Shown here piece by piece: positions 1 through 13,304 of a stretch of 14,574 nt of DNA. The DNA is from a virus. Taxonomy: Duplodnaviria; Heunggongvirae; Uroviricota; Caudoviricetes. The DNA lies in the IMG/VR virus record IMGVR_UViG_2851955134_000008; one strand, given 5' to 3'. The translations under genes and the position numbers were made by a program. The notes beneath the pieces are model-generated. The model worked only from the letters and a program-made list of their open reading frames with translations. It did no database searches and had not been told where the DNA came from. Numbering within the stretch: position 1 is the first letter of the stretch; each line of letters starts with the position of its first letter.

Positions 1-1284
1 TTACTTCTTCGCCTCTGCAACCACTTTACTACCCACGCCGCGGTTATTGTATTCCCACATGCGGTTGTAGTTAGTGTCATTCAGATTGCGCTGTATTTCG
101 TCGTTATCATCTACGCTGCCGGTATTACCCGCAAACGGACGATTAGAGATCACCGCATCGGCCCACGGTTTAGCCGTGTTAAAACCTTCGTTGATGGCGC
201 TATCACGGATCACCACCTGACCGTTGGTATTGGCATCAACATCCAGCGAGCGGCCCAGTTGCGCCACACCATCACCGAAAGCATTGAAACGGCTGTTTAC
301 GGCGAGGAAACCGTAGTAAATGTTGGACAGCGTAGCCGGTGCAAACACATACGCTTCTTGCTGAGTACGTGAGTTCACCACGCGGAATTCGGTGTTATCG
401 AACACCACTGCGCCGCGACCAGAAACGATATCCACATCCCCTTCAATGTAGCTGTTGGTCACCAGCGTACGCGGCTGACGATTCGTTTCCAGACGGTTCT
501 GCACACCGCTGTTGGTGACAAAGAAGGTGTTCTGACGACCGAGAATGTTAACGTTGTTAATCTGTACCTGGTCACCATCAGTACGCAGTGCCACCGCCGG
601 ATGGTTACCTGCATCTACGCTATCGCCCAGCGTGTTTTCGATGGTCAGATTTTGCAGTTGCAGGCCATTGTTTTGTGACCAGAAGACCGCAGAGCAGAGA
701 ACACCGATACTGTCGCTGCGTTTGCTCTGGCAGCTATCGTACATATACCACGCTGGTTTACCTGGCATATATTTGCCGCGCGGGTTGACGTCGTGACGCC
801 AGTCGGCAGGGCTCATGCCACCATCAAGGGAAAGCCCAATCTTCACATCAATCGGTTTTTCACCTGTACCGTACAGAGTAATTCCACCCGGAGCGGCAGG
901 GACATATACCGTTCCCTGATACTCACCAGGCATCACGGCAATATACTGGCGCTTGTTGGTACGCTTGATAATTGCCGCATCTACCGCCGCCTGAATCGTG
1001 GTATGCGTTACACCTTGAGTGCCCGCCGGGCCGACAACAAAGTCAGGTTGCGCAGGCAGGGTAATCGGGGAAGGATTCCACGCTGCAGCACCTGGTGTCA
1101 GGGATGCAAAATAGTGTTGAGCATCGAAATTCTGCGCTTCTTTTGCCGACAGAATCGGGCGAGAAGAGGTACCAGGCGCGGTTTGATCAGAAGGACGTTG
1201 ATCGGGCGGGGTTGAGCTACAGGCGGTCAGCGTCACGCCAAAAGCCAATGCCAGCGCCAGACGGGAAACTGAAAATGTGTTCAC
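1..1284 (-). CDS. ybhC: YbhC-type outer-membrane lipoprotein (pectinesterase-like / acyl-CoA thioesterase family), chromosomal gene flanking attB-lambda
   Basis: Complete 427-aa ORF with a lipoprotein signal (LTACSS lipobox). It matches my recollection of E. coli YbhC and sits where ybhC lies beside the lambda attachment site. GC content is host-like. Confidence 0.85.
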   Translation of the reverse strand: MNTFSVSRLALALAFGVTLTACSSTPPDQRPSDQTAPGTSSRPILSAKEAQNFDAQHYFASLTPGAAAWNPSPITLPAQPDFVVGPAGTQGVTHTTIQAAVDAAIIKRTNKRQYIAVMPGEYQGTVYVPAAPGGITLYGTGEKPIDVKIGLSLDGGMSPADWRHDVNPRGKYMPGKPAWYMYDSCQSKRSDSIGVLCSAVFWSQNNGLQLQNLTIENTLGDSVDAGNHPAVALRTDGDQVQINNVNILGRQNTFFVTNSGVQNRLETNRQPRTLVTNSYIEGDVDIVSGRGAVVFDNTEFRVVNSRTQQEAYVFAPATLSNIYYGFLAVNSRFNAFGDGVAQLGRSLDVDANTNGQVVIRDSAINEGFNTAKPWADAVISNRPFAGNTGSVDDNDEIQRNLNDTNYNRMWEYNNRGVGSKVVAEAKK

Positions 1285-1315: not shown

Positions 1316-1420
1316 AATCCGTTGAAGCCTGCTTTTTTATACTAAGTTGGCATTATAAAAAAGCATTGCTTATCAATTTGTTGCAACGAACAGGTCACTA
1401 TCAGTCAAAATAAAATCATT
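1316..1420. other. attL: attL (B-O-P' junction) of a lambda-type integration; 15-bp core GCTTTTTTATACTAA at 1331..1345
   Basis: The exact lambda att core is read directly. To its left is GTTGAAGCCT, the attB bacterial arm as I recall it. To its right is GTTGGCATTATAAAAAAGCATTGCTTATCAATTTGTTGCAACGAACAGGTCACTATCAGTCAAAATAAAATCATTATTTGATTTC, which I recall as the lambda P' arm leading into the int 3' end. Confidence 0.85.
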
Positions 1421-1685
1421 ATTTGATTTCAATTTTGTCCCACTCCCTGCCTCTGTCATCACGATACTGTGATGCCATGGTGTCCGACTTATGCCCGAGA
1501 AGATGTTGAGCAAACTTATCGCTTATCTGCTTCTCATAGAGTCTTGCAGACAAACTGCGCAACTCGTGAAAGGTAGGCGGATCCCCTTCGAAGGAAAGAC
1601 CTGATGCTTTTCGTGCGCGCATAAAATACCTTGATACTGTGCCGGATGAAAGCGGTTCGCGACGAGTAGATGCAATTATGGTTTC
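1419..1685 (-). pseudogene. int: Integrase remnant (3' third of lambda-type int, lacks N-terminal arm-binding and core-binding domains and part of the catalytic domain)
   Basis: Only the Int C-terminal segment up to the stop is present. It still includes the region around the catalytic tyrosine (LSARLYEKQ) and an intact internal GGATCC at 1579..1584. No xis ORF is present. Confidence 0.8.
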
Positions 1686-2057
1686 AACCATGTACCGGAT
1701 GTGTTCTGCCATGCGCTCCTGAAACTCAACATCGTCATCAAACGCACGGGTAATGGCTTTTTTGCTGGCCCCGTGGCGTTGTAAATGATCGATGCAGAGT
1801 GATTCAAACAGGTGCTGGGGCAGACCTTTTTCCATGTCGTCTGCCAGTTCTGCCTCTTTCTCTTCACGGGCGATCTGCTGGTAGTGACGCGTCCAGCTCT
1901 GAGCCTCAAGACGATCCTGAATGTAATAAGCGTTCATGGCTGAACTCCTGAAATAGCTGTGAAAATATCGCCCGCGAAATGCCGGGCTGATTAGGAAAAC
2001 AGGAAAGGAGGTTAGTGAATGCTTTTGCTTGATCTCAGTTTCAGTATTAATATCCAT
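1419..2057 (-). CDS. gam: In-frame chimeric ORF: lambda Gam (GamL start 2057, GamS start 1937; first ~124-127 codons) fused to the C-terminal ~85-88 codons of lambda integrase
   Basis: The N-terminal part ([15 protein letters not shown]...[15 protein letters not shown]...EHIRYMV) matches recalled lambda Gam. The C-terminal part ([21 protein letters not shown]...REWDKIEIK) matches the recalled lambda Int C-terminus. A good RBS (CAGGAG) precedes the GamS ATG. Confidence 0.85.
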
Positions 2058-2155
2058 TTTTTATAAGCGTCGACGGCCTCACGAAACATCTTTTCATCGC
2101 CAATAAAAGTGGCGATAGTGAATTTAGTCTGGATAGCCATAAGTGTTTGATCCAT
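2012..2155 (-). CDS. kil: Kil (47-aa host cell-division inhibitor of lambda)
   Basis: [50 protein letters not shown] matches recalled lambda Kil. AGGAG lies 8 nt upstream of the ATG. It overlaps the cIII 3' end as in lambda. Confidence 0.75.
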
Positions 2156-2288
2156 TTTTTGGGACTCCTGGCTGATTAAGTATGTCGATAAGGCGTTTCC
2201 ATCCGTCACGTAATTTACGGGTGATTCGTTCAAGTAAAGATTCGGAAGGGCAGCCAGCAACAGGCCACCCTGCAATGGCATATTGCAT
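2124..2288 (-). CDS. cIII: CIII (54-aa FtsH/HflB inhibitor, lysogeny regulator)
   Basis: I translated this ORF by hand: [54 protein letters not shown]. It matches recalled lambda CIII and is below the 60-aa cutoff of the supplied ORF track. Confidence 0.8.
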   Translation of the reverse strand: MQYAIAGWPVAGCPSESLLERITRKLRDGWKRLIDILNQPGVPKNGSNTYGYPD

Positions 2289-2360
2289 GGTGTGCTCCTT
2301 ATTTATACATAACGAAAAACGCCTCGAGTGAAGCGTTATTGGTATGCGGTAACGCCGCGC

Positions 2361-3587: not shown

Positions 3588-3860
3588 TCATCTCGCCGTC
3601 AGTTGTTTTGATTTCCGGTAGCCTGCCGCGTAAATGGCTACGTTTGGCAGGCAAATACTTCCACTGCATTCATCTGCCTTCTTGCAGCGAAGGCTTCCGA
3701 GTGATGCTGCTTTGTCTGCTCTGACGCAACCAGAGAGCTTTAGCGCAATTTTTCGCGCCAGTCGCTGTTCTTGCATTGCCTGCTCACGTTGAGCCTGTCT
3801 GCGTGCTCTGCGGCGATTTCTGGCGTTATCGTCAGCCAGATATGTAATGACTACTGCCAT
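3588..3860 (-). CDS. N: N-type transcription antitermination protein (P22 gene 24-like C-terminus, distinct arginine-rich motif)
   Basis: 90-aa ORF with an N-terminal arginine-rich motif (NARNRRRARRQAQREQ). Its C-terminus (LPNVAIYAAGYRKSKQLTAR) closely resembles the recalled P22 gp24 C-terminus (LPGVALYAAGHRKSKQITAR). It is the first gene downstream of pL/nutL. Confidence 0.8.
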   Translation of the reverse strand: MAVVITYLADDNARNRRRARRQAQREQAMQEQRLARKIALKLSGCVRADKAASLGSLRCKKADECSGSICLPNVAIYAAGYRKSKQLTAR

Positions 3861-4008: not shown

Positions 4009-4055
4009 CTGCCAATCTGTTCCGTTTGGCTACCAGCGTCCTGCCGATGACTTAA

Positions 4056-4108
4056 ATTTAAGATTTCTTTAACTATTGGTCAAGAGCGTTTTTGAAGAAA
4101 ACTTAAAT
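4056..4108 (-). promoter_or_regulatory. OL/pL region: at least two 18-bp P22-type operator sites (4056..4073 ATTTAAGATTTCTTTAAC; 4091..4108 TTTGAAGAAAACTTAAAT)
   Basis: Both sites fit the NNNNAAGNNNNCTTNNNN pattern shared with the three OR sites. They sit upstream of nutL and N on the leftward transcription unit. Confidence 0.6.
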
Positions 4109-4172: not shown

Positions 4173-4823
4173 TTATGGAAGGTTTGCTATTTTTGCATCG
4201 ACAACTACACCGATGATTTTGCAGTTCCCGTTGATCTCAATCATCGGATATTGTGGGTTAAGTGGTTTTAGAAACCTTCTGCCAGCATCAATAACTAACT
4301 TCTTGAAAGTTGCCTCGTTTTCTCCTTCGAGCTTTGCCACTACCAGCTTCCCATTACGAGGTTCTACTTCAGGATCGACTAGTATTATCATCCCTTCCGG
4401 GATGCTAAGACCGGCTGGAGCCGTCATCGAATCACCCTTTACGTCCAGCCAAAACGAATCTTCTGAACAATCTACGGTTGTATCGTACCAGTTATCTATT
4501 GCACGCTTATGATATGGCTCTACAGCTTCCATCCAACATCCTGCGCTTACCCAACTAATTAGAGGATACGAACCTCTTGGATCATGCCTGCTGTGATAGG
4601 CAATGTTTGAAAGACTATCTTCTCCTTTCAACAAGTAATCAGGGGAGCACTGTAAAGCCTTGGCTAAAGCCAATAGGTTTTCGCCATTGGGCTCAGTTTC
4701 AGAACGCTCCCATTGGGAAATAGCAACATTAGACACGCCAACCATCTTGCCAAGGGCAGCCTGCCTAATCTTAAGTTCTTTTCTGCGAGCGCGAATACGC
4801 TCACCCATCAGTTGTGTATTCAT
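4173..4823 (-). CDS. cI: Prophage repressor, P22 C2-type (N-terminal HTH, C-terminal LexA-like S24 autopeptidase domain)
   Basis: 216-aa ORF, near-identical over its length to my recollection of P22 C2 (MNTQLMGERIRARRK.LKIRQAALGKMVGVSNVAISQWERSETEPNGENLLAL...). The Ser/Lys dyad context (GDSM ... K) is present. Confidence 0.9.
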   Translation of the reverse strand: MNTQLMGERIRARRKELKIRQAALGKMVGVSNVAISQWERSETEPNGENLLALAKALQCSPDYLLKGEDSLSNIAYHSRHDPRGSYPLISWVSAGCWMEAVEPYHKRAIDNWYDTTVDCSEDSFWLDVKGDSMTAPAGLSIPEGMIILVDPEVEPRNGKLVVAKLEGENEATFKKLVIDAGRRFLKPLNPQYPMIEINGNCKIIGVVVDAKIANLP

Positions 4824-4903: not shown

Positions 4904-5023
4904 ATGTACAAGAAAGATGTTATCGACCACTTCGGAACCCAGCGTGCGGTACCGAATACTGAAGAATTACGCCAAAACACTGACAGGAGCAGGAGTATGA
5001 AGTCAGAGATAACAATCAACTAA
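4904..5023 (+). pseudogene. cro: cro remnant: first 16 codons of a P22-type cro, then unrelated sequence to a stop (39 codons)
   Basis: MYKKDVIDHFGTQRAV matches the recalled P22 Cro N-terminus. The next 23 codons (PNTEELRQNTDRSRSMKSEITIN) do not, and the ORF is too short for a Cro fold. Confidence 0.7.
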
Positions 5024-5085
5024 TACTGTTTTGTTGATTTTTGCTTGTAATTGGCGTTCTGGTCTGAGTTTTGTGGAGTAAGTTG

Positions 5086-5463
5086 ATGCGTGATATTCAG
5101 ATGGTTCTTGAGCGTTGGGGAGCGTGGGCGGCTAATAATCATGAAGATGTGACCTGGTCGTCCATTGCCGCCGGTTTTAAGGGATTAATTCCTTCAAAAG
5201 TAAAATCTCGCCCACAATGTTGTGACGATGACGCGATGATCATTTGCGGGTGCATGGCCCGTCTGAAAAAGAACAACAGCGATTTGCATGATTTATTGGT
5301 GGACTATTATGTCGGCGGCATGACTTTTATGGCGCTTGCACGTAAGCATGGGCGATCTGATTGTTGGGTTGGCAGGATGCTTCAGAAAGCTGAGGGCGTA
5401 GTGGAGGGTATGCTGATGGTGTTGGATCTCCGATTGGAGATGGATGCTGATTGTTCGAAATAA
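5086..5463 (+). CDS. Q: Late-gene antiterminator Q, phage-21 / DLP12 QuuD / P22 gp23 type
   Basis: [37 protein letters not shown]... matches the recalled QuuD/gp23 family. GGAG lies 7 nt upstream of ATG 5086. It is followed by a short leader and tR'. Confidence 0.85.
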
Positions 5464-5618: not shown

Positions 5619-6143
5619 TTATTGTTTAACCCATAATAATTCATTGACATTGAATCCCAACTTTTGAGCGGTTCGCACATAGTCTGCTTTTACTTTATCT
5701 GGAATAGTTGGGGTCCTTGCCAGAATCCATAGGTATTCTCTGTTCGGACCACTGACAAGAGCATACTTATACTCATCATCCAGTTTGATTACATTATAGC
5801 CACCATAGAAGGGGCCAAAAAACGAAACCTTCAATGCTGCAGTTTTAGTATCTCCAGTAAAGTATGCTTTACCTTCGCTCTCGCTCCATTTATTTTTCGT
5901 TGGATCGTATCCACGGTTAAGTACACGAATCCCTCCGTCGTTCCGTTTTCCATAAGTAGCGCTGACCTGTTCCAGACCACGTTCGAACCGGTTCTCGAGG
6001 CGAGCTATTTCATACCATTTTCCGAGGTAGCGGTTGGCGTCAAAATTTGTAATCGGCTGCACACCTTTAGGTGGTGTCGGGGCCTTACATGCTATAAGAG
6101 TGAAAGAGAGTGCAATGCCAGTCAACACAGGCCATAACTTCAT
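5619..6143 (-). CDS. Blc-like bacterial lipocalin, outer-membrane lipoprotein
   Basis: 174-aa ORF with a lipoprotein signal (LIAC lipobox). It resembles recalled E. coli Blc throughout (NFDANRYLGKWYEIARLENRFERGLEQVSATY ... KVSFFGPFYGGYNVI ... YLWILARTPT). Confidence 0.85.
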   Translation of the reverse strand: MKLWPVLTGIALSFTLIACKAPTPPKGVQPITNFDANRYLGKWYEIARLENRFERGLEQVSATYGKRNDGGIRVLNRGYDPTKNKWSESEGKAYFTGDTKTAALKVSFFGPFYGGYNVIKLDDEYKYALVSGPNREYLWILARTPTIPDKVKADYVRTAQKLGFNVNELLWVKQ

Positions 6144-6335
6144 AATAAATCCTGTACTTTTGATAGTTGAGAGTAAGTATGAAAGATAGATGATTACGAC
6201 CGATCACTTAAAGAACTTTCATACTATATTAGGAATAGTCCATAACAGAAAAATTGTCAGTGATGACGCCAGAAAGGCAATTTATTCCGTGCACTACACA
6301 GTTTATGTGTTAATGAATTAGTCAAGGGGGAGAAT

Positions 6336-7295
6336 ATGATAAAAAAACCTGTGATTGGAATCAGCGGTTGTTTGGCCGGTTCTGCTGTTCGTTTTGATGG
6401 TGGTCACAAAAGAGCTGACTTTTTAATGGACAAATTAGTGGAATGGGTAACATTCAGACCAGTATGTCCGGAAATGGCTATAGGGCTGCCAGTTCCGCGT
6501 CCTGCTCTACGTCTTGTGCGCTCGATGCAAGGAAATATACGGATGTGTTTCAGCCACGACCAGAATGAGGATGTGACAGAGAGAATGACAGAGTTTAGTC
6601 GTTCTTATATGGACAAATTAAAGGATGTATCGGGGTTTGTGGTTTGTGCTAAATCTCCCAGCTGTGGCATGGAGCGCGTGCGTGTCTATGATGAAAATGG
6701 TAATCGAGGTCGTAAAGATGGAGTGGGACTATTTACGAGCACTTTGATGGAAAAGTTTTCCTGGCTACCGGTTGAAGAGGATGGGCGATTACATGATCCA
6801 GTGCTTCGTGAGAATTTTGTTGAAAGAGTTTTTGCTTTGCATGAGCTCAATCACCTTTACAAGGAGAAATTATCAAGAAGAGAGTTATTAGCTTTTCATA
6901 GTCGTTATAAGCTTCAGTTGTTGGCGCATAGTCAGGCAGGCTATAAAGATATGGGACCATTTGTGGCTGCAATACACGAGTGGGCGGACCTTGAATCATA
7001 CTTTGAGGTGTATCGTGATAAGCTGATGGCGATTCTCAGAAAACCTGCATCACGTAAAAATCACACGAATGTGCTGATGCATATACAGGGGTATTTTAGT
7101 AACTACTTAAGTACACGCCAGCGTAAAGAGTTGAGCGAGGTTATACTTAACTATCGTTCTGGCACATTACCTCTTCTTGCGCCGTTGACTCTGCTGAAGC
7201 ATTATCTGGGTGAGTATCCTAATGATTACTTGCTTACACAGAATTACTTCGATCCCTATCCGGACGAACTGGCTCTAAGACTGATGGTAAATTAA
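6336..7295 (+). CDS. DUF523 (TudS-like, putative Fe-S thiouracil desulfidase fold) fused to a DUF1722 (YbgA-like) domain
   Basis: 319-aa ORF with a GGGGG-like RBS (AAGGGGGAG) upstream. The N-terminal third has three cysteines (C12, C44, C105) spaced as in the TudS family as I recall it. The family assignment is from memory and needs an HMM search. Confidence 0.55.
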   Translation: MIKKPVIGISGCLAGSAVRFDGGHKRADFLMDKLVEWVTFRPVCPEMAIGLPVPRPALRLVRSMQGNIRMCFSHDQNEDVTERMTEFSRSYMDKLKDVSGFVVCAKSPSCGMERVRVYDENGNRGRKDGVGLFTSTLMEKFSWLPVEEDGRLHDPVLRENFVERVFALHELNHLYKEKLSRRELLAFHSRYKLQLLAHSQAGYKDMGPFVAAIHEWADLESYFEVYRDKLMAILRKPASRKNHTNVLMHIQGYFSNYLSTRQRKELSEVILNYRSGTLPLLAPLTLLKHYLGEYPNDYLLTQNYFDPYPDELALRLMVN

Positions 7296-7646
7296 TTGTA
7301 TGCGATATCATCCAAAAGGATGAGTTCCTGCATGCAGGATATTTACAATCGTAAAAACTACACTATGATACCCAGAGTGTCAGTTTGTATAAAAACTCTG
7401 TTTACGCTGAAGAAACAATTGAGATGCAACTTAAAGTTGGTAAACATGCCAGTCAAAATATATAATATTATGATTCCACGCAGCTATATATAATATAACA
7501 GATTGGTTTAATAATTTGTCTTTGTGAGTTAAATACATAATTTTATACTTGTGATGCAATGAAATTTTCCTTATTGTTGAACTGGCGAATATTGATTTTC
7601 CACCTATACTTACCTGGTGTAACCCCAATGATATCAGGTGGATAAT

Positions 7647-8378
7647 ATGCCATACATATGTTCTATCATTTTGGTGTTGAACTCGTTTGATGTCCGAATT
7701 GGTAAAGAAGATATTTTGTTTAAAAAAGGAAGTGCTGTTCTCATTGATTACAATTTAAAAGATTTTTTTTCATCAAATATAGATCATGTAATGATCGTAG
7801 ATGTTGAAGAGAAAACAGTTAATGATTTCTTTAAAAGCAACACACTCTCACCTTTTTCTGTAAGAAGGTTTTATCCGGCATACTTGATGGTGGAATGTGA
7901 AGATTTTTCATTGTTAAAGAACTTGATTGCATGCTTGAATTGTGATGGCAGAACTGTGGATTTTGTTAGAAATCAAATATCACTTGCATGTCTTGCTATC
8001 TTATCTTCAGAGAAAATAGTGCAAAGTTTTTTATTTGGATGTCTTAATAGTTTAGGAAGTAAAGTTAAGGCTATTATTCACACGGATATATCTGCAGCAT
8101 GGAGACTTTGTGATATATCTTCAAGACTGTATCTGAGTGAAAGTCTGTTAAAAAGAAAATTAAAGCACGAAGGCTTATCATTTAGTAAGTTAATTCTTGA
8201 AGAGCGAATGGTGATGGCGGAAAGGTTATTAAGCTACAATTTATATTCTGTTGGAAAAGTTGCTGAGATATGCGGTTATGAAAACACGTCATATTTTGTA
8301 AGTGTTTTCAGAAGGTATTTTGGTGTTCCTCCCCATCAATATTCATCAAGATTTTTTTTAGAAAAAGACATGATGTAA
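7647..8378 (+). CDS. AraC/XylS-family transcriptional regulator (AppY/EnvY/GadX-like), in an AT-rich island
   Basis: C-terminal 100 aa carry the two-HTH AraC signature (..LSFSKLILEERMVMAERLL..VGKVAEICGYENTSYFVSVFRRYFGVPPHQY). AGGTGG lies 7 nt upstream of ATG 7647. An alternative GTG start is at 7638. Confidence 0.8.
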   Translation: MPYICSIILVLNSFDVRIGKEDILFKKGSAVLIDYNLKDFFSSNIDHVMIVDVEEKTVNDFFKSNTLSPFSVRRFYPAYLMVECEDFSLLKNLIACLNCDGRTVDFVRNQISLACLAILSSEKIVQSFLFGCLNSLGSKVKAIIHTDISAAWRLCDISSRLYLSESLLKRKLKHEGLSFSKLILEERMVMAERLLSYNLYSVGKVAEICGYENTSYFVSVFRRYFGVPPHQYSSRFFLEKDMM

Positions 8379-8565: not shown

Positions 8566-8781
8566 ATGAAATCCATGGATAAGTTAACAACGGGTGTCGC
8601 CTATGGCACCTCAGCAGGTAGTGCCGGTTACTGGTTTTTACAGCTGCTCGATAAAGTCACGCCCTCACAGTGGGCAGCAATAGGTGTGCTGGGTAGCCTG
8701 GTATTTGGCCTGCTGACGTACCTGACAAACCTTTATTTCAAGATTAAAGAAGATAAGCGCAAGGCTGCGAGAGGTGAATAA
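8566..8781 (+). CDS. S: Pinholin, phage-21 S21 type, with dual starts (MKSMDK: antiholin from 8566, holin from 8575)
   Basis: 71-aa ORF matching recalled S21/EssD (..[43 protein letters not shown]). Two transmembrane segments. It lies immediately upstream of the endolysin. Confidence 0.9.
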
Positions 8782-9278
8782 TGCCTCCATCATTACGAAA
8801 AGCCGTTGCTGCTGCTATTGGTGGCGGAGCAATTGCTATAGCATCAGTGTTAATCACTGGCCCAAGTGGTAACGATGGTCTGGAAGGTGTCAGCTACATA
8901 CCATACAAAGATATCGTTGGCGTATGGACTGTATGTCACGGGCATACAGGAAAAGACATCATTCCCGGTAAAACGTATACCGAAGCAGAATGCAAAGCCC
9001 TCCTGAATAAAGACCTTGCCACGGTAGCCAGACAAATTAACCCGTACATCAAAGTCGATATACCGGAAACAACGCGCGGCGCTCTTTACTCGTTCGTCTA
9101 TAACGTGGGCGCAGGCAATTTCAGAACATCTACTCTTCTTCGCAAAATAAACCAGGGCGATATCAGGGGCGCATGTGACCAGCTACGTCGCTGGGCATAC
9201 GCTGGCGGTAAGCAATGGAAAGGCCTGATGACTCGTCGTGAGATTGAGCGTGAGGTCTGTTTGTGGGGGCAACAATGA
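8781..9278 (+). CDS. R: SAR endolysin (signal-anchor-release lysozyme), R21 type
   Basis: 165-aa ORF with an N-terminal glycine/alanine-rich SAR segment ([20 protein letters not shown]) followed by a lysozyme domain. Its start overlaps the S stop (TAATG). Confidence 0.9.
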
Positions 9279-9739
9279 GCAGGGTAACCGCGATTATCTC
9301 CGCTCTGGTTATCTGCATCATCGTCTGCCTGTCATGGGCTGTTAATCATTACCGTGATAACGCCATTACCTACAAAGCCCAGCGCGACAAAAATGCCAGA
9401 GAACTGAAGCTGGCGAACGCGGCAATTACTGACATGCAGATGCGTCAGCGTGATGTTGCTGCGCTCGATGCAAAATACACGAAGGAGTTAGCTGATGCGA
9501 AAGCTGAAAATGATGCTCTGCGTGATGATGTTGCCGCTGGTCGTCGTCGGTTGCACATCAAAGCAGTCTGTCAGTCAGTGCGTGAAGCCACCACCGCCTC
9601 CGGCGTGGATAATGCAGCCTCCCCCCGACTGGCAGACACCGCTGAACGGGATTATTTCACCCTCCGGGAACGACTGGTAATGATGCAGGCCCAACTTGAA
9701 GGTGCTCAGCAATACATAACCGAGCAGTGTTTAAAGTAA
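9275..9739 (+). CDS. Rz: Rz i-spanin (inner-membrane spanin subunit)
   Basis: Starts at ATGA, overlapping the R stop. It has an N-terminal transmembrane segment and a coiled-coil-like periplasmic domain. Rz1 is embedded in the +1 frame. Confidence 0.85.
9495..9680 (+). CDS. Rz1: Rz1 o-spanin (outer-membrane lipoprotein), embedded within Rz in a different frame
   Basis: 61-aa ORF with a lipobox (LVVVGC) and a proline-rich mature region ([15 protein letters not shown]), entirely inside Rz. Confidence 0.8.
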
Positions 9740-9876
9740 AATCTTAACTACAATATGATTCATTTTGATGATTGTTTCATAAGGAACAGTGAAGTAAGAT
9801 CTAAGAGGAGTTAAATTTTATACAGTATAATCATAATATTGCAGCAAGGTGGTTATAATTGAAAGAATATTTAGAT

Positions 9877-11334
9877 ATGAATACATCTCATGTAAGAGTT
9901 GTTACTCATATGTGTGGGTTCCTGGTTTGGCTCTATAGTCTTTCAATGTTGCCACCAATGGTTGTAGCATTGTTTTATAAAGAAAAAAGCCTGTTCGTTT
10001 TCTTTATAACTTTCGTTATATTTTTTTGCATTGGTGGCGGAGCGTGGTATACAACTAAGAAATCTGGCATTCAATTACGTACCCGTGATGGGTTTATTAT
10101 AATTGTAATGTTTTGGATTTTGTTTTCTGTTATTAGTGCATTCCCTTTATGGATTGACTCAGAACTTAATTTAACGTTCATTGATGCTCTGTTTGAAGGG
10201 GTTTCTGGAATAACAACAACAGGAGCAACTGTAATTGATGATGTTAGTTCATTACCTCGGGCATATTTGTACTATCGGTCACAGTTAAATTTTATAGGTG
10301 GTTTAGGAGTTATTGTTCTGGCGGTTGCTGTATTGCCATTATTGGGTATTGGTGGTACAAAGCTTTATCAGTCAGAAATGCCGGGGCCATTTAAGGATGA
10401 CAAACTCACTCCCCGCCTGGCCGATACGTCACGGACACTGTGGATAACTTATTCTTTATTAGGTATTGCTTGTATTGTCTGTTATAGACTTGCAGGAATG
10501 CCTTTGTTTGATGCTATTTGTCACGGGATTTCCACAGTTTCGCTTGGTGGTTTCTCAACTCATAGCGAGAGTATCGGATATTTTAATAACTATTTGGTTG
10601 AGCTGGTGGCTGGTTCTTTTTCCCTGCTATCGGCTTTCAACTTCACTCTTTGGTATATTGTTATTAGCAGGAAAACGATAAAACCTTTAATCAGAGATAT
10701 TGAACTTCGTTTCTTTCTGTTAATAGCCTTAGGGGTGATCATTGTTACCTCTTTCCAGGTCTGGCATATAGGTATGTATGACTTGCATGGAAGTTTTATT
10801 CATTCGTTTTTTCTTGCCAGCTCCATGCTCACTGATAATGGTTTAGCTACGCAGGATTATGCAAACTGGCCCACGCACACGATAGTGTTTTTGCTGTCGT
10901 CAAGTTTCTTTGGGGGATGTATAGGTTCAACTTGTGGTGGAATTAAGTCACTTCGATTTCTTATACTTTTCAAACAAAGCAAACACGAGATAAATCAGCT
11001 TTCTCATCCCAGAGCGTTGTTGAGTGTAAATGTAGGAGGGAAGATAGTTACAGATCGTGTAATGAGGTCTGTATGGAGTTTCTTTTTTCTTTATACTCTC
11101 TTCACGGTGTTTTTTATACTGGTGTTAAATGGTATGGGATATGATTTTCTTACATCATTTGCAACAGTGGCTGCATGTATTAATAATATGGGATTAGGTT
11201 TTGGGGCTACTGCATCGTCATTCGGAGTGCTTAATGACATTGCAAAATATTTAATGTGCATAGCTATGATTCTTGGTCGCCTTGAAATTTATCCTGTTAT
11301 TATATTGTTTTCAGGTTTTTTTTGGCGCTCCTAA
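9877..11334 (+). CDS. trkG: TrkG/TrkH-family potassium uptake transporter (prophage-borne, as trkG in the Rac prophage)
   Basis: 485-aa polytopic membrane ORF matching recalled E. coli TrkG from MNTSHVRVVTHMCGFLVWLYSL onward. The region is AT-rich. An alternative in-frame TTG lies at 9859. Confidence 0.9.
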   Translation: MNTSHVRVVTHMCGFLVWLYSLSMLPPMVVALFYKEKSLFVFFITFVIFFCIGGGAWYTTKKSGIQLRTRDGFIIIVMFWILFSVISAFPLWIDSELNLTFIDALFEGVSGITTTGATVIDDVSSLPRAYLYYRSQLNFIGGLGVIVLAVAVLPLLGIGGTKLYQSEMPGPFKDDKLTPRLADTSRTLWITYSLLGIACIVCYRLAGMPLFDAICHGISTVSLGGFSTHSESIGYFNNYLVELVAGSFSLLSAFNFTLWYIVISRKTIKPLIRDIELRFFLLIALGVIIVTSFQVWHIGMYDLHGSFIHSFFLASSMLTDNGLATQDYANWPTHTIVFLLSSSFFGGCIGSTCGGIKSLRFLILFKQSKHEINQLSHPRALLSVNVGGKIVTDRVMRSVWSFFFLYTLFTVFFILVLNGMGYDFLTSFATVAACINNMGLGFGATASSFGVLNDIAKYLMCIAMILGRLEIYPVIILFSGFFWRS

Positions 11335-11471: not shown

Positions 11472-13304
11472 ATGAGCGAGAAATTAAAGATAGTCTATCG
11501 CCCATTACAAGAATTGTCACCGTATGCGCACAACGCCAGGACGCACAGTACTGAGCAGGTGGCACAACTGGTAGAAAGTATTAAGCAATTCGGCTGGACT
11601 AATCCGGTGCTGATTGACGAAAAGGGCGAAATTATTGCGGGTCACGGTCGTGTTATGGCGGCTGAAATGCTCAAAATGGATTCTGTTCCGGTCATTGTTC
11701 TGTCTGGCCTGACGGATGAGCAGAAAAAGGCGTACCGCCTGGCAGATAATCGCCTACCGATGAATGCTGGCTGGGATGAAGATCTGTTGCGGATGGAGCT
11801 GTCGGACCTAATCAATGCTGATTTTGATGTCTCCCTGACAGGCTTCGGCCCGACACAAATTGATGAACTGTTGACGGATGTTTTGCCCGGTACAGGAAAT
11901 AAGGAGGAGGGGAATACCAATATATCCGGCGTCACGGTGGTGTTCCGGGCCGGTGAGCAGGAGCAGACACCGCCGGAGGGATTTGAATCCTCCGGCTCCG
12001 AGACGGTGCTCGGTACAGAAGTGAAATATGACACGCCGATCACCCGGACCATCACGTCGGCAAACATTGACCGTCTGCGTTTTACTTTCGGCGTGCAGGC
12101 ACTGGTGGAAACCACCTCAAAGGGGGACAGGAATCCATCGGAAGTCCGCCTGCTGGTTCAGATACAACGTAACGGTGGCTGGGTGACGGAAAAAGACATC
12201 ACCATTAAGGGTAAAACCACTTCACAGTATCTGGCCTCGGTGGTGGTGGATAACCTGCCGCCGCGCCCGTTCAGTATCCGGATGCGCAGGATGACGCCGG
12301 ACAGCACCACAGACCAGCTGCAGAACAAAACGCTCTGGTCGTCATACACCGAAATTATCGATGTGAAACAGTGCTACCCGAACACGGCACTGTTCGGCGT
12401 GCAGGTGGACTCGGAGCAGTTCGGCAGCCAGCAGGTGAGCCGTAATTATCATCTGCGCGGGCGTATTCTGCAGGTGCCGTCGAATTATAACCCGCAGACG
12501 CGGCAATACAGCGGTATCTGGGACGGAACGTTTAAACCGGCATACAGCAACAACATGGCCTGGTGTATGTGGGATATGCTGACCCATCCGCGCTACGGCA
12601 TGGGGAAACGTCTTGGTGCAGCGGATGTAGATAAATGGGCGCTGTATGTCATCGGCCAGTACTGCGACCAGTCGGTGCCGGACGGCTTTGGCGGCACGGA
12701 GCCGCGCATCACCTGTAATGCGTACCTGACCACACAGCGCAAGGCGTGGGATGTGCTCAGTGATTTCTGCTCGGCGATGCGCTGTATGCCGGTATGGAAC
12801 GGGCAGACGCTGACGTTCGTGCAGGACCGACCATCAGATAAGGTGTGGACCTATAACCGCAGTAATGTGGTGATGCCGGATGATGGCGCGCCGTTCCGCT
12901 ACAGCTTCAGCGCCCTGAAGGACCGCCATAATGCCGTTGAGGTGAACTGGATTGACCCGAACAACGGCTGGGAGACGGCGACAGAGCTTGTTGAAGATAC
13001 GCAGGCCATTGCCCGTTACGGTCGTAACGTCACGAAGATGGATGCCTTTGGCTGTACCAGCCGGGGGCAGGCGCACCGCGCCGGGCTGTGGCTGATTAAA
13101 ACGGAACTGCTGGAAACGCAGACCGTGGACTTCAGCGTGGGTGCGGAAGGGCTTCGCCATGTACCGGGGGATGTCATTGAAATCTGCGATGATGACTATG
13201 CGGGTATCAGCATCGGCGGGCGTGTGCTGGCGGTGAACAGCCAGACCCGGACGCTGACGCTCGACCGTGAAATCACGCTGCCATCCTCCGGTAAATCCGT
13301 TTAA
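11472..13304 (+). CDS. J: In-frame chimera: ParB-like nuclease-domain protein N-terminus (~145 aa, YnaK-like) fused to an internal segment of lambda tail-tip protein J (to about J residue 530), then a stop 3 codons past the J homology
   Basis: Residues 1-145 carry a ParB/Srx-like motif ([11 protein letters not shown]). From [36 protein letters not shown] to REITLPSSG the sequence matches recalled lambda J. J's N-terminal ~65 residues and C-terminal ~600 residues, including the receptor-binding end, are absent. Confidence 0.85.

Follow-up and report, generated by a model that had tools for sequence, protein, structure and literature searches.

Short-homology recombination is an established route to spontaneous deletions in Escherichia coli, and illegitimate recombination of this kind has been described in two settings, the deletions in lacI and the origin of lambda bio transducing phages. 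Internal deletions have removed excision, replication and morphogenesis genes from the defective ("cryptic" or "grounded") lambdoid prophages, among them lambda-B of REL606/BL21 and DLP12, Rac and Qin in K-12. The lambda-B remnant of E. coli B occupies the same attB site as the element described here (PMC4395058). For this element and its joint, the literature yielded only general accounts of grounded prophages and of the E. coli B lambda-B remnant.

Two lambda proteins are relevant to the present locus. Gam, produced as GamL and GamS, is an inhibitor of RecBCD (PDB 2uuz, 5mbv), and its N-terminal helix inserts into RecB, thereby plugging the ssDNA channel (PMC5218532); the same source gives a shift of about four-fold in the ciprofloxacin MIC for Gam. 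The lambda integrase Int is a tyrosine recombinase (PDB 1z1b, 1ae9). In the stretch of DNA analysed here (14,574 nucleotides at its full length, hereafter the window), parts of both genes are joined in one open reading frame. We read this frame, with a probability of about 0.93, as the scar of a deletion in a lambdoid prophage undergoing decay at the lambda attachment site of E. coli. The features of the locus are collected in Table 1.

Table 1. Coordinates of the chimeric frame, its joint and the surrounding prophage features (window positions unless stated otherwise)
Feature	Position	Strand	Details
ybhC, host gene, gal side of the lambda attachment site	1..1284	minus	427-aa ORF, Pfam Pectinesterase
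attL core GCTTTTTTATACTAA, 15 bp	1331..1345	plus	exact core match; host sequence to the left
Chimeric gam'-'int ORF	1419..2057	minus	212 aa, no internal stop
int 3' fragment, unique to the int parent	1419..1677	minus	Int codons 272-356 and stop; 100% identical to lambda and YSP8-1 int
8-bp microhomology ATGGTTTC	1678..1685		present both in int (lambda 28071..28078) and in gam (lambda 32853..32860); a single copy kept
gam 5' fragment, unique to the gam parent	1686..2057	minus	codons 1-124 of 138
kil, upstream neighbour in the pL operon	2012..2155	minus	Pfam Lambda_Kil, 72 bits; overlaps the long Gam start
cIII	2124..2288	minus	Pfam Lambda_CIII
cIII RNA thermosensor, intact	2243..2301	minus	Rfam Lambda_thermo RF01804, 88.5 bits; upstream of cIII
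N antiterminator, first gene of the leftward operon	3588..3860	minus	Pfam N_peptide
Candidate pL promoter (TTGACC, 17 nt, TAAATT)	4055..4083	minus	consensus scan only, 9/12 matches; assigned by position relative to N and cI
cI-type repressor, intact	4173..4823	minus	216 aa, HTH and Peptidase_S24 (Pfam)
Second, independent deletion joint	4950..4951		truncated cro to just upstream of Q; 2-bp overlap
610-aa ORF	11472..13304	plus	ParB_N (ynaK-like) N-terminus; gpJ FNIII-A and Phage-tail_3 domains
attR core, intact	L015 15580..15594 (~window 17,050, beyond the window)		adjoins ybhB

The chimeric reading frame and its two parents

The ORF encodes Gam residues 1-127 and Int residues 269-356 in frame, the tripeptide E-T-I (residues 125-127) being common to both parents. 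An earlier note on this DNA had proposed one ORF that reads Gam from residue 1 to about 124-127 and then the Int C-terminus, and this two-gene in-frame join is confirmed by translation, phmmer and Pfam. An alternative start at the GamS Met41 (base 1937) gives a product of 172 aa. On the integrase side, residues 125-212 are identical to lambda Int 269-356 at 88 of 88 positions (phmmer against PDB 1z1b, 5j0n and 1p7d; tblastn), with 1ae9 also among the mismatch-free phmmer PDB matches. On the Gam side, residues 1-127 show 96.9% identity to the same residues of lambda Gam, the substitutions being P17S, A56T, L62I and S101A, and residues 40/41-128 align to GamS in 2uuz and 5mbv (phmmer against PDB sequences).

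The domain content is truncated in both halves. The Pfam Gam domain (PF06064) covers residues 41-128 (profile positions 1-88 of 98; 190 bits, cut-off 25), and its C-terminal end, i.e. profile positions 89-98 or lambda Gam residues 128-138, is replaced by Int. Thus, the chimera shares the GamS start and the N-terminal helix with lambda Gam and keeps most of the DNA-mimic Gam body, whereas the last 11 residues (AHHQVDIDSEV) are exchanged for 85 Int residues. Phage_integrase (PF00589) is matched over profile positions 93-168 of 172 (65 bits). The C-terminal 88 residues of lambda integrase are retained without change, including the nucleophile Y342, whereas residues 1-268 are missing. Pfam found neither the arm-binding N-domain (PF09003) nor the core-binding domain (PF22022 / PF02899) in the chimera; full-length relatives carry all of these domains. 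The catalytic set is likewise incomplete, with H308, R311, H333 and Y342 present and R212 and K235 absent (lambda Int positions). Deprived of the arm-binding and core-binding domains as well as of two catalytic residues out of six, the Int fragment would be unable to recombine DNA. An AlphaFold2 model of the chimera, based on a 20-sequence alignment, reached a mean pLDDT of 46 and a pTM of 0.20 and is usable for secondary structure only; in it the joint falls, with low confidence, in the predicted last Gam helix.

On the gam side, identity is 100% with E. coli YSP8-1 and with many E. coli prophages, 99.6% with Stx phages and 98.1% with lambda. Judged from these identities, the gam allele is of the E. 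coli prophage/Stx-phage type and not lambda's, and the element is a lambdoid mosaic with a lambda integration module, not lambda itself.

The joint at base resolution

The crossover was placed by base-by-base extension outward from exact anchors on both sides, that is, by the nucleotide alignment to gam and int which the earlier note had proposed as a check. Exact identity to int (lambda 27724..28078; also YSP8-1) reaches window base 1685 and is lost entirely beyond it, where the window reads AACCATGTACCG and int reads TCCGCCAAGAAT. Exact identity to gam extends back to base 1678 (lambda 32853) and is lost before it (window GTAGATGCAATT versus gam TGGTGGTGAGCA). The crossover sits inside ATGGTTTC, of which one copy is kept, and the flanks diverge immediately on either side. 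This alignment upholds the suggestion of a short microhomology-mediated joint. As to its extent, both parents had been thought to encode E-T-I across nt 1677..1685; the codon block stands, but the homology is not shared over all 9 nt. Base 1677 differs between the parents, the Ile codon being ATA in int and ATT in gam, and the microhomology is therefore 8 bp.

The length of this overlap was compared with a random-joint control on the parental sequences. Among 200,000 int x gam joints, 0.05% had at least 8 bp of junctional homology (P = 5e-4), and 56% had none. In direct orientation, 23 8-mers are common to int and gam. Words of 8 bp are easy to find in the two genes, yet a joint that falls exactly on one of them is not chance.

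The deleted interval

Among RefSeq complete genomes, the nearest undeleted relative is E. coli YSP8-1, which matches the window in five colinear blocks of 99.9-100% identity. Between blocks 1 and 2, the YSP8-1 interval contains int codons 1-268, xis, exo, bet and the gam end, together with six small accessory genes, an IS1, an Ea22-like fragment, a TraR/DksA-type gene, DUF1382 and DUF1317. Missing from the window are the first 268 codons of int, all of xis, the ea/orf genes, exo and bet, and the final 11 codons of gam. The deletion amounts to 4,782 bp in lambda coordinates, in line with the roughly 4-5 kb estimated earlier from the lambda map, and to 6,065 bp in YSP8-1, which has an extra IS1; without this IS1, the YSP8-1 interval is ~5.3 kb. 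For the actual ancestor, the deleted length is given as a range, of about 5.3-6.1 kb. The earlier description of the loss as the "int 5' two-thirds" was right about int and too low on the fraction, which is three quarters (268/356 codons).

With lambda Int, Xis, Exo and Bet as queries, tblastn picked up nothing beyond the parts of the chimera itself, either in the window or in a sister assembly (L015), which covers the whole remnant and runs through attR into ybhB, bioA and uvrB. The proposed loss of everything between gam and the int 3' end thus holds for the window and for the complete remnant, with neither xis nor a second int elsewhere in the prophage and no Exo or Bet to provide Red recombination. 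Since Int and Xis are missing, the element would be unable to excise by itself, and it would have no Red recombination.

The prophage remnant around the joint

The annotation of ybhC is present in every matching E. coli genome. To the right of the attL core, the lambda P' arm runs up to the stop codon of int, whose 3' end follows, window 1331..1685 being 100% identical to lambda 27724..28078. The opposite end was located in L015, which is 99.92% identical to the window over 13.1 kb: here, the phage side of attR carries a P arm 88% identical to lambda, and host sequence lies on the other side toward ybhB. The attL and attR cores are ~15.7 kb apart, which gives the size of the remnant, at attB between ybhC and ybhB. 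Because both cores survive, excision may be conceivable if Int and Xis were supplied in trans. Just inside attR, L015 carries a GGDEF/MASE4 diguanylate cyclase gene.

The outline of the leftward operon is intact, with N, ea10/DUF2528, cIII, kil and the chimera. The cI-type repressor is also intact, at 216 aa, in GCA_009820155.1; it is called as a 119-aa fragment in GCA_946060455.1 and GCA_965180935.1 (L007, L015), and pL may be derepressed in these two.

The second deletion spans 4,654 bp relative to YSP8-1 (L002 12293 to 16948). At window 4904..5086, it cut cro after ~16 codons, joined it to the ylcG 3' end and removed the cro 3' end, cII, O, P, ren, the nin genes and rusA. Cargo genes occupy 5619..8378 between Q and the lysis cassette, i.e. 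a lipocalin gene (minus strand), DUF523/DUF1722 (YbgA-like) and an AraC-type regulator; in Stx phages, stx holds this position. The holin-lysozyme-Rz cassette (8566..9739) is directly followed by trkG (9859..11334, plus strand), a potassium transporter gene known from the Rac prophage of K-12. The 610-aa ORF is a further in-frame deletion fusion in the remnant; at least 10 contigs carry the identical protein, and PGAP calls two separate pseudogenes in FORC_031. Downstream of the ORF lie tail-fibre fragments. Of J and the tail-fibre genes, only fragments are left. Pfam annotation of the remnant gave neither replication nor head genes. The loss of int and xis is only one among several lethal defects.

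Occurrence of the chimera

At least seven assemblies or read sets of independent origin contain the identical chimera. The 212-aa protein corresponds to GenBank AWS65131.1 (locus tag AM464_21170) on a 5.2-Mb E. coli contig, and the 172-aa form to CAM7397128.1 / MXD32136.1, found on ~10 contigs from three NCBI assemblies and four groups of raw-read assemblies. The carriers comprise GCA_009820155.1, GCA_965180935.1, GCA_946060455.1, AM464 and four Logan runs. In carrier contigs, among them two of 318 kb and 5.2 Mb, ybhC is always found on one side of the chimera and kil with cIII on the other. Relative to the window, identity is at least 99.9% over 12-13 kb, and the carriers therefore represent one small lineage. 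As all copies of the chimera are identical, they give no signal for or against purifying selection.

A contig look-up of the 212-aa form had nothing on record; gene callers choose the Met41 start. None of the 5,426 RefSeq complete E. coli genomes has the joint in one piece. Twelve RefSeq matches at 82% coverage were considered as candidates for the same joint and rejected, as they represent another deletion (E2 type, see below). The exact 42-nt joint has no match in GTDB representative genomes (one per species), the allele being too rare to reach a species-representative genome.

Other deletions at the same site

Three further independent int-gam or int-kil joints were identified at attB(lambda) in other E. 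coli. In the E2 type (L001 4120..5280; 12 RefSeq genomes), 975 nt of int are joined in frame to the 5' part of gam with a 2-bp overlap, the gam portion ending near Gam residue 103 (annotated as 190 nt, beginning at the GamS start). EC01 (L013 3120..4132) combines 930 nt of int with 84 nt of gam, out of frame and with a 5-bp overlap. In TD225-C4 (L012 3120..3907), which keeps 648 nt of int, the joint lies barely within GamL, at its start by kil; it is in frame and has a 3-bp overlap. As in the window, the attL-side 3' end of int is kept and fused to gam or kil, and Xis and Red are lost. The breakpoints differ, as only 267 nt of int are kept in the window, and the overlaps of 2, 5 and 3 bp contrast with the 8 bp found here. 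Moreover, in the search of 5.8 billion protein clusters, C-terminal fragments of lambda-type integrases, labelled "partial", form many clusters whose member counts lie in the tens to hundreds. Given these clusters and the four joints, deletion of the int 5' part with retention of the attL-proximal 3' end is a common fate at attB(lambda).

A sister remnant (L003; FORC_031 and many ETEC O6:H16 genomes) retains int and xis in full and agrees with the window at 99.98% between 5732 and 14574. Its IS1-bounded deletion runs from a DUF2513 gene to the lipocalin gene.

Alternative explanations

The alternative that survives best, though unlikely, is that the chimera is a working Gam-type inhibitor of RecBCD with a new C-terminal tail, maintained by selection that favoured an in-frame fusion. 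It retains Gam 1-127, with both the GamS start at Met41 and the N-terminal helix occupying the ssDNA channel of RecB, it still lies in the pL operon behind N, cIII and kil, and its ORF is intact in every carrier. This intactness, however, reflects recent common descent rather than selection, because the carriers are near-identical. Three of the four independent joints at the locus, including that of the window, are in frame, slightly above the expected one third; with a binomial P of 0.11 this is not significant, and in-frame bias was rejected as a signal of selection. The other joints keep 15 to ~63 Gam residues or are out of frame, and therefore no common Gam function is preserved. The last 10 Pfam Gam positions are missing, with the joint in the predicted last helix of a low-confidence model, and diverged homologues of the fusion were not found in the search of 5.8 billion clusters. 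Most likely, the ORF would be a neutral, pseudogene-like fusion. Since the N-terminal helix and most of the Gam fold are kept, some residual inhibition of RecBCD is possible, with a chance of roughly one in three. A bolder variant is a long shot: gam'-'int would be a domesticated, SOS-inducible RecBCD inhibitor whose Int tail alters stability or partners, and the recurrence in frame would stem from selection for prophage lock-in and for translation at the pL end.

A more remote class of explanations, to which we give very little weight, invokes site-specific deletion by Int at a secondary att site, transposon-driven deletion next to IS1, or a deletion made in laboratory lambda. Copies of IS1 do occur in the corresponding interval of relatives, and the FORC_031-type deletion is bounded by IS1, but the joint in the window has neither IS sequence nor a target duplication. 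An Int-driven event is not favoured either, as ATGGTTTC is unlike the TTTATAC overlap region of the att core. Many lambda derivatives used in the laboratory are devoid of int-red-gam; in the window, however, gam allele, immunity region and cargo are of the kind found in wild E. coli prophages rather than in lambda vectors, and the carriers come from several unrelated sequencing projects. DE3 or another laboratory lambda derivative was rejected because of the wild-prophage immunity, gam allele and cargo, and also because the BamHI site of int is uninterrupted, GGATCC being found at 1579..1584 (corresponding to lambda 27972) just as the earlier note had stated.

A natural full-length family with a Gam-like N-terminus and an integrase-like C-terminus, which had been named as the finding that would speak against a fusion of two lambda genes, is barely credible: the ORF is unbroken and GenBank lists it as a protein, but its halves are 100% identical in nucleotide sequence to the separate int and gam genes of the close relative YSP8-1, in the search of 5.8 billion clustered proteins no other match extends over more than 60% of the chimera or pairs PF06064 with PF00589, and clustering at 90% identity places it in an ordinary Gam cluster of 18 members. 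Just as implausible is a chimeric contig assembled from two prophage regions. Lambdoid prophages do share assembly-breaking repeats, and one carrier assembly (L006) switches prophage after the lysis genes, but the joint recurs with its ybhC and attL and its kil and cIII flanks in ~10 contigs, including independent and raw-read assemblies, and no assembler would be misled by a repeat of only 8 bp.

Proposed origin and comparison with known systems

In summary, the deletion event is real, with no finding that speaks against it, but represents ordinary prophage decay. A single deletion between the two 8-bp direct repeats ATGGTTTC in int and gam kept one copy and removed everything in between. As both repeats encode Glu-Thr-Ile in the same phase, the product is a single open frame in which Int 272-356 comes directly after Gam 1-127. 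Recombination at short homology, independent of RecA, is the probable origin of the deletion, either as replication slippage or by annealing of resected ends at the microhomology after a break. As the pL operon in which it lies is antiterminated by N and controlled by an intact cI-type repressor, the chimera would probably be made only on derepression.

The significance of this joint extends little beyond bookkeeping, namely an annotation fix and a lineage marker. The ORF is currently annotated as "hypothetical protein" or "tyrosine-type recombinase/integrase" and should be annotated as a fused pseudogene gam'-'int; the integrase label could mislead predictors of prophage activity that read an integrase match as mobility. 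The joint itself is an exact and easily typed marker of one small E. coli lineage. Together, the four joints at attB(lambda) form a clean natural series in which excision and Red were lost by short-homology deletions and the attL-proximal end of int was kept.

The scar shares with spontaneous short-repeat deletions in E. coli the occurrence of the same 8-bp word in both parents and the single copy left behind; it differs in the spacing of its repeats, 4.8-6 kb, a large distance if simple slippage is assumed. Like other defective lambdoid prophages, the remnant keeps a lambda-type int end at attL along with repressor, N, Q, lysis cassette and cargo. The lambda-B remnant of REL606 differs in having kept full int and xis and in its other internal content. 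Relative to the cryptic prophages, the distinguishing feature of the present remnant is that one deletion took int, xis and Red, leaving an in-frame gam'-'int ORF.
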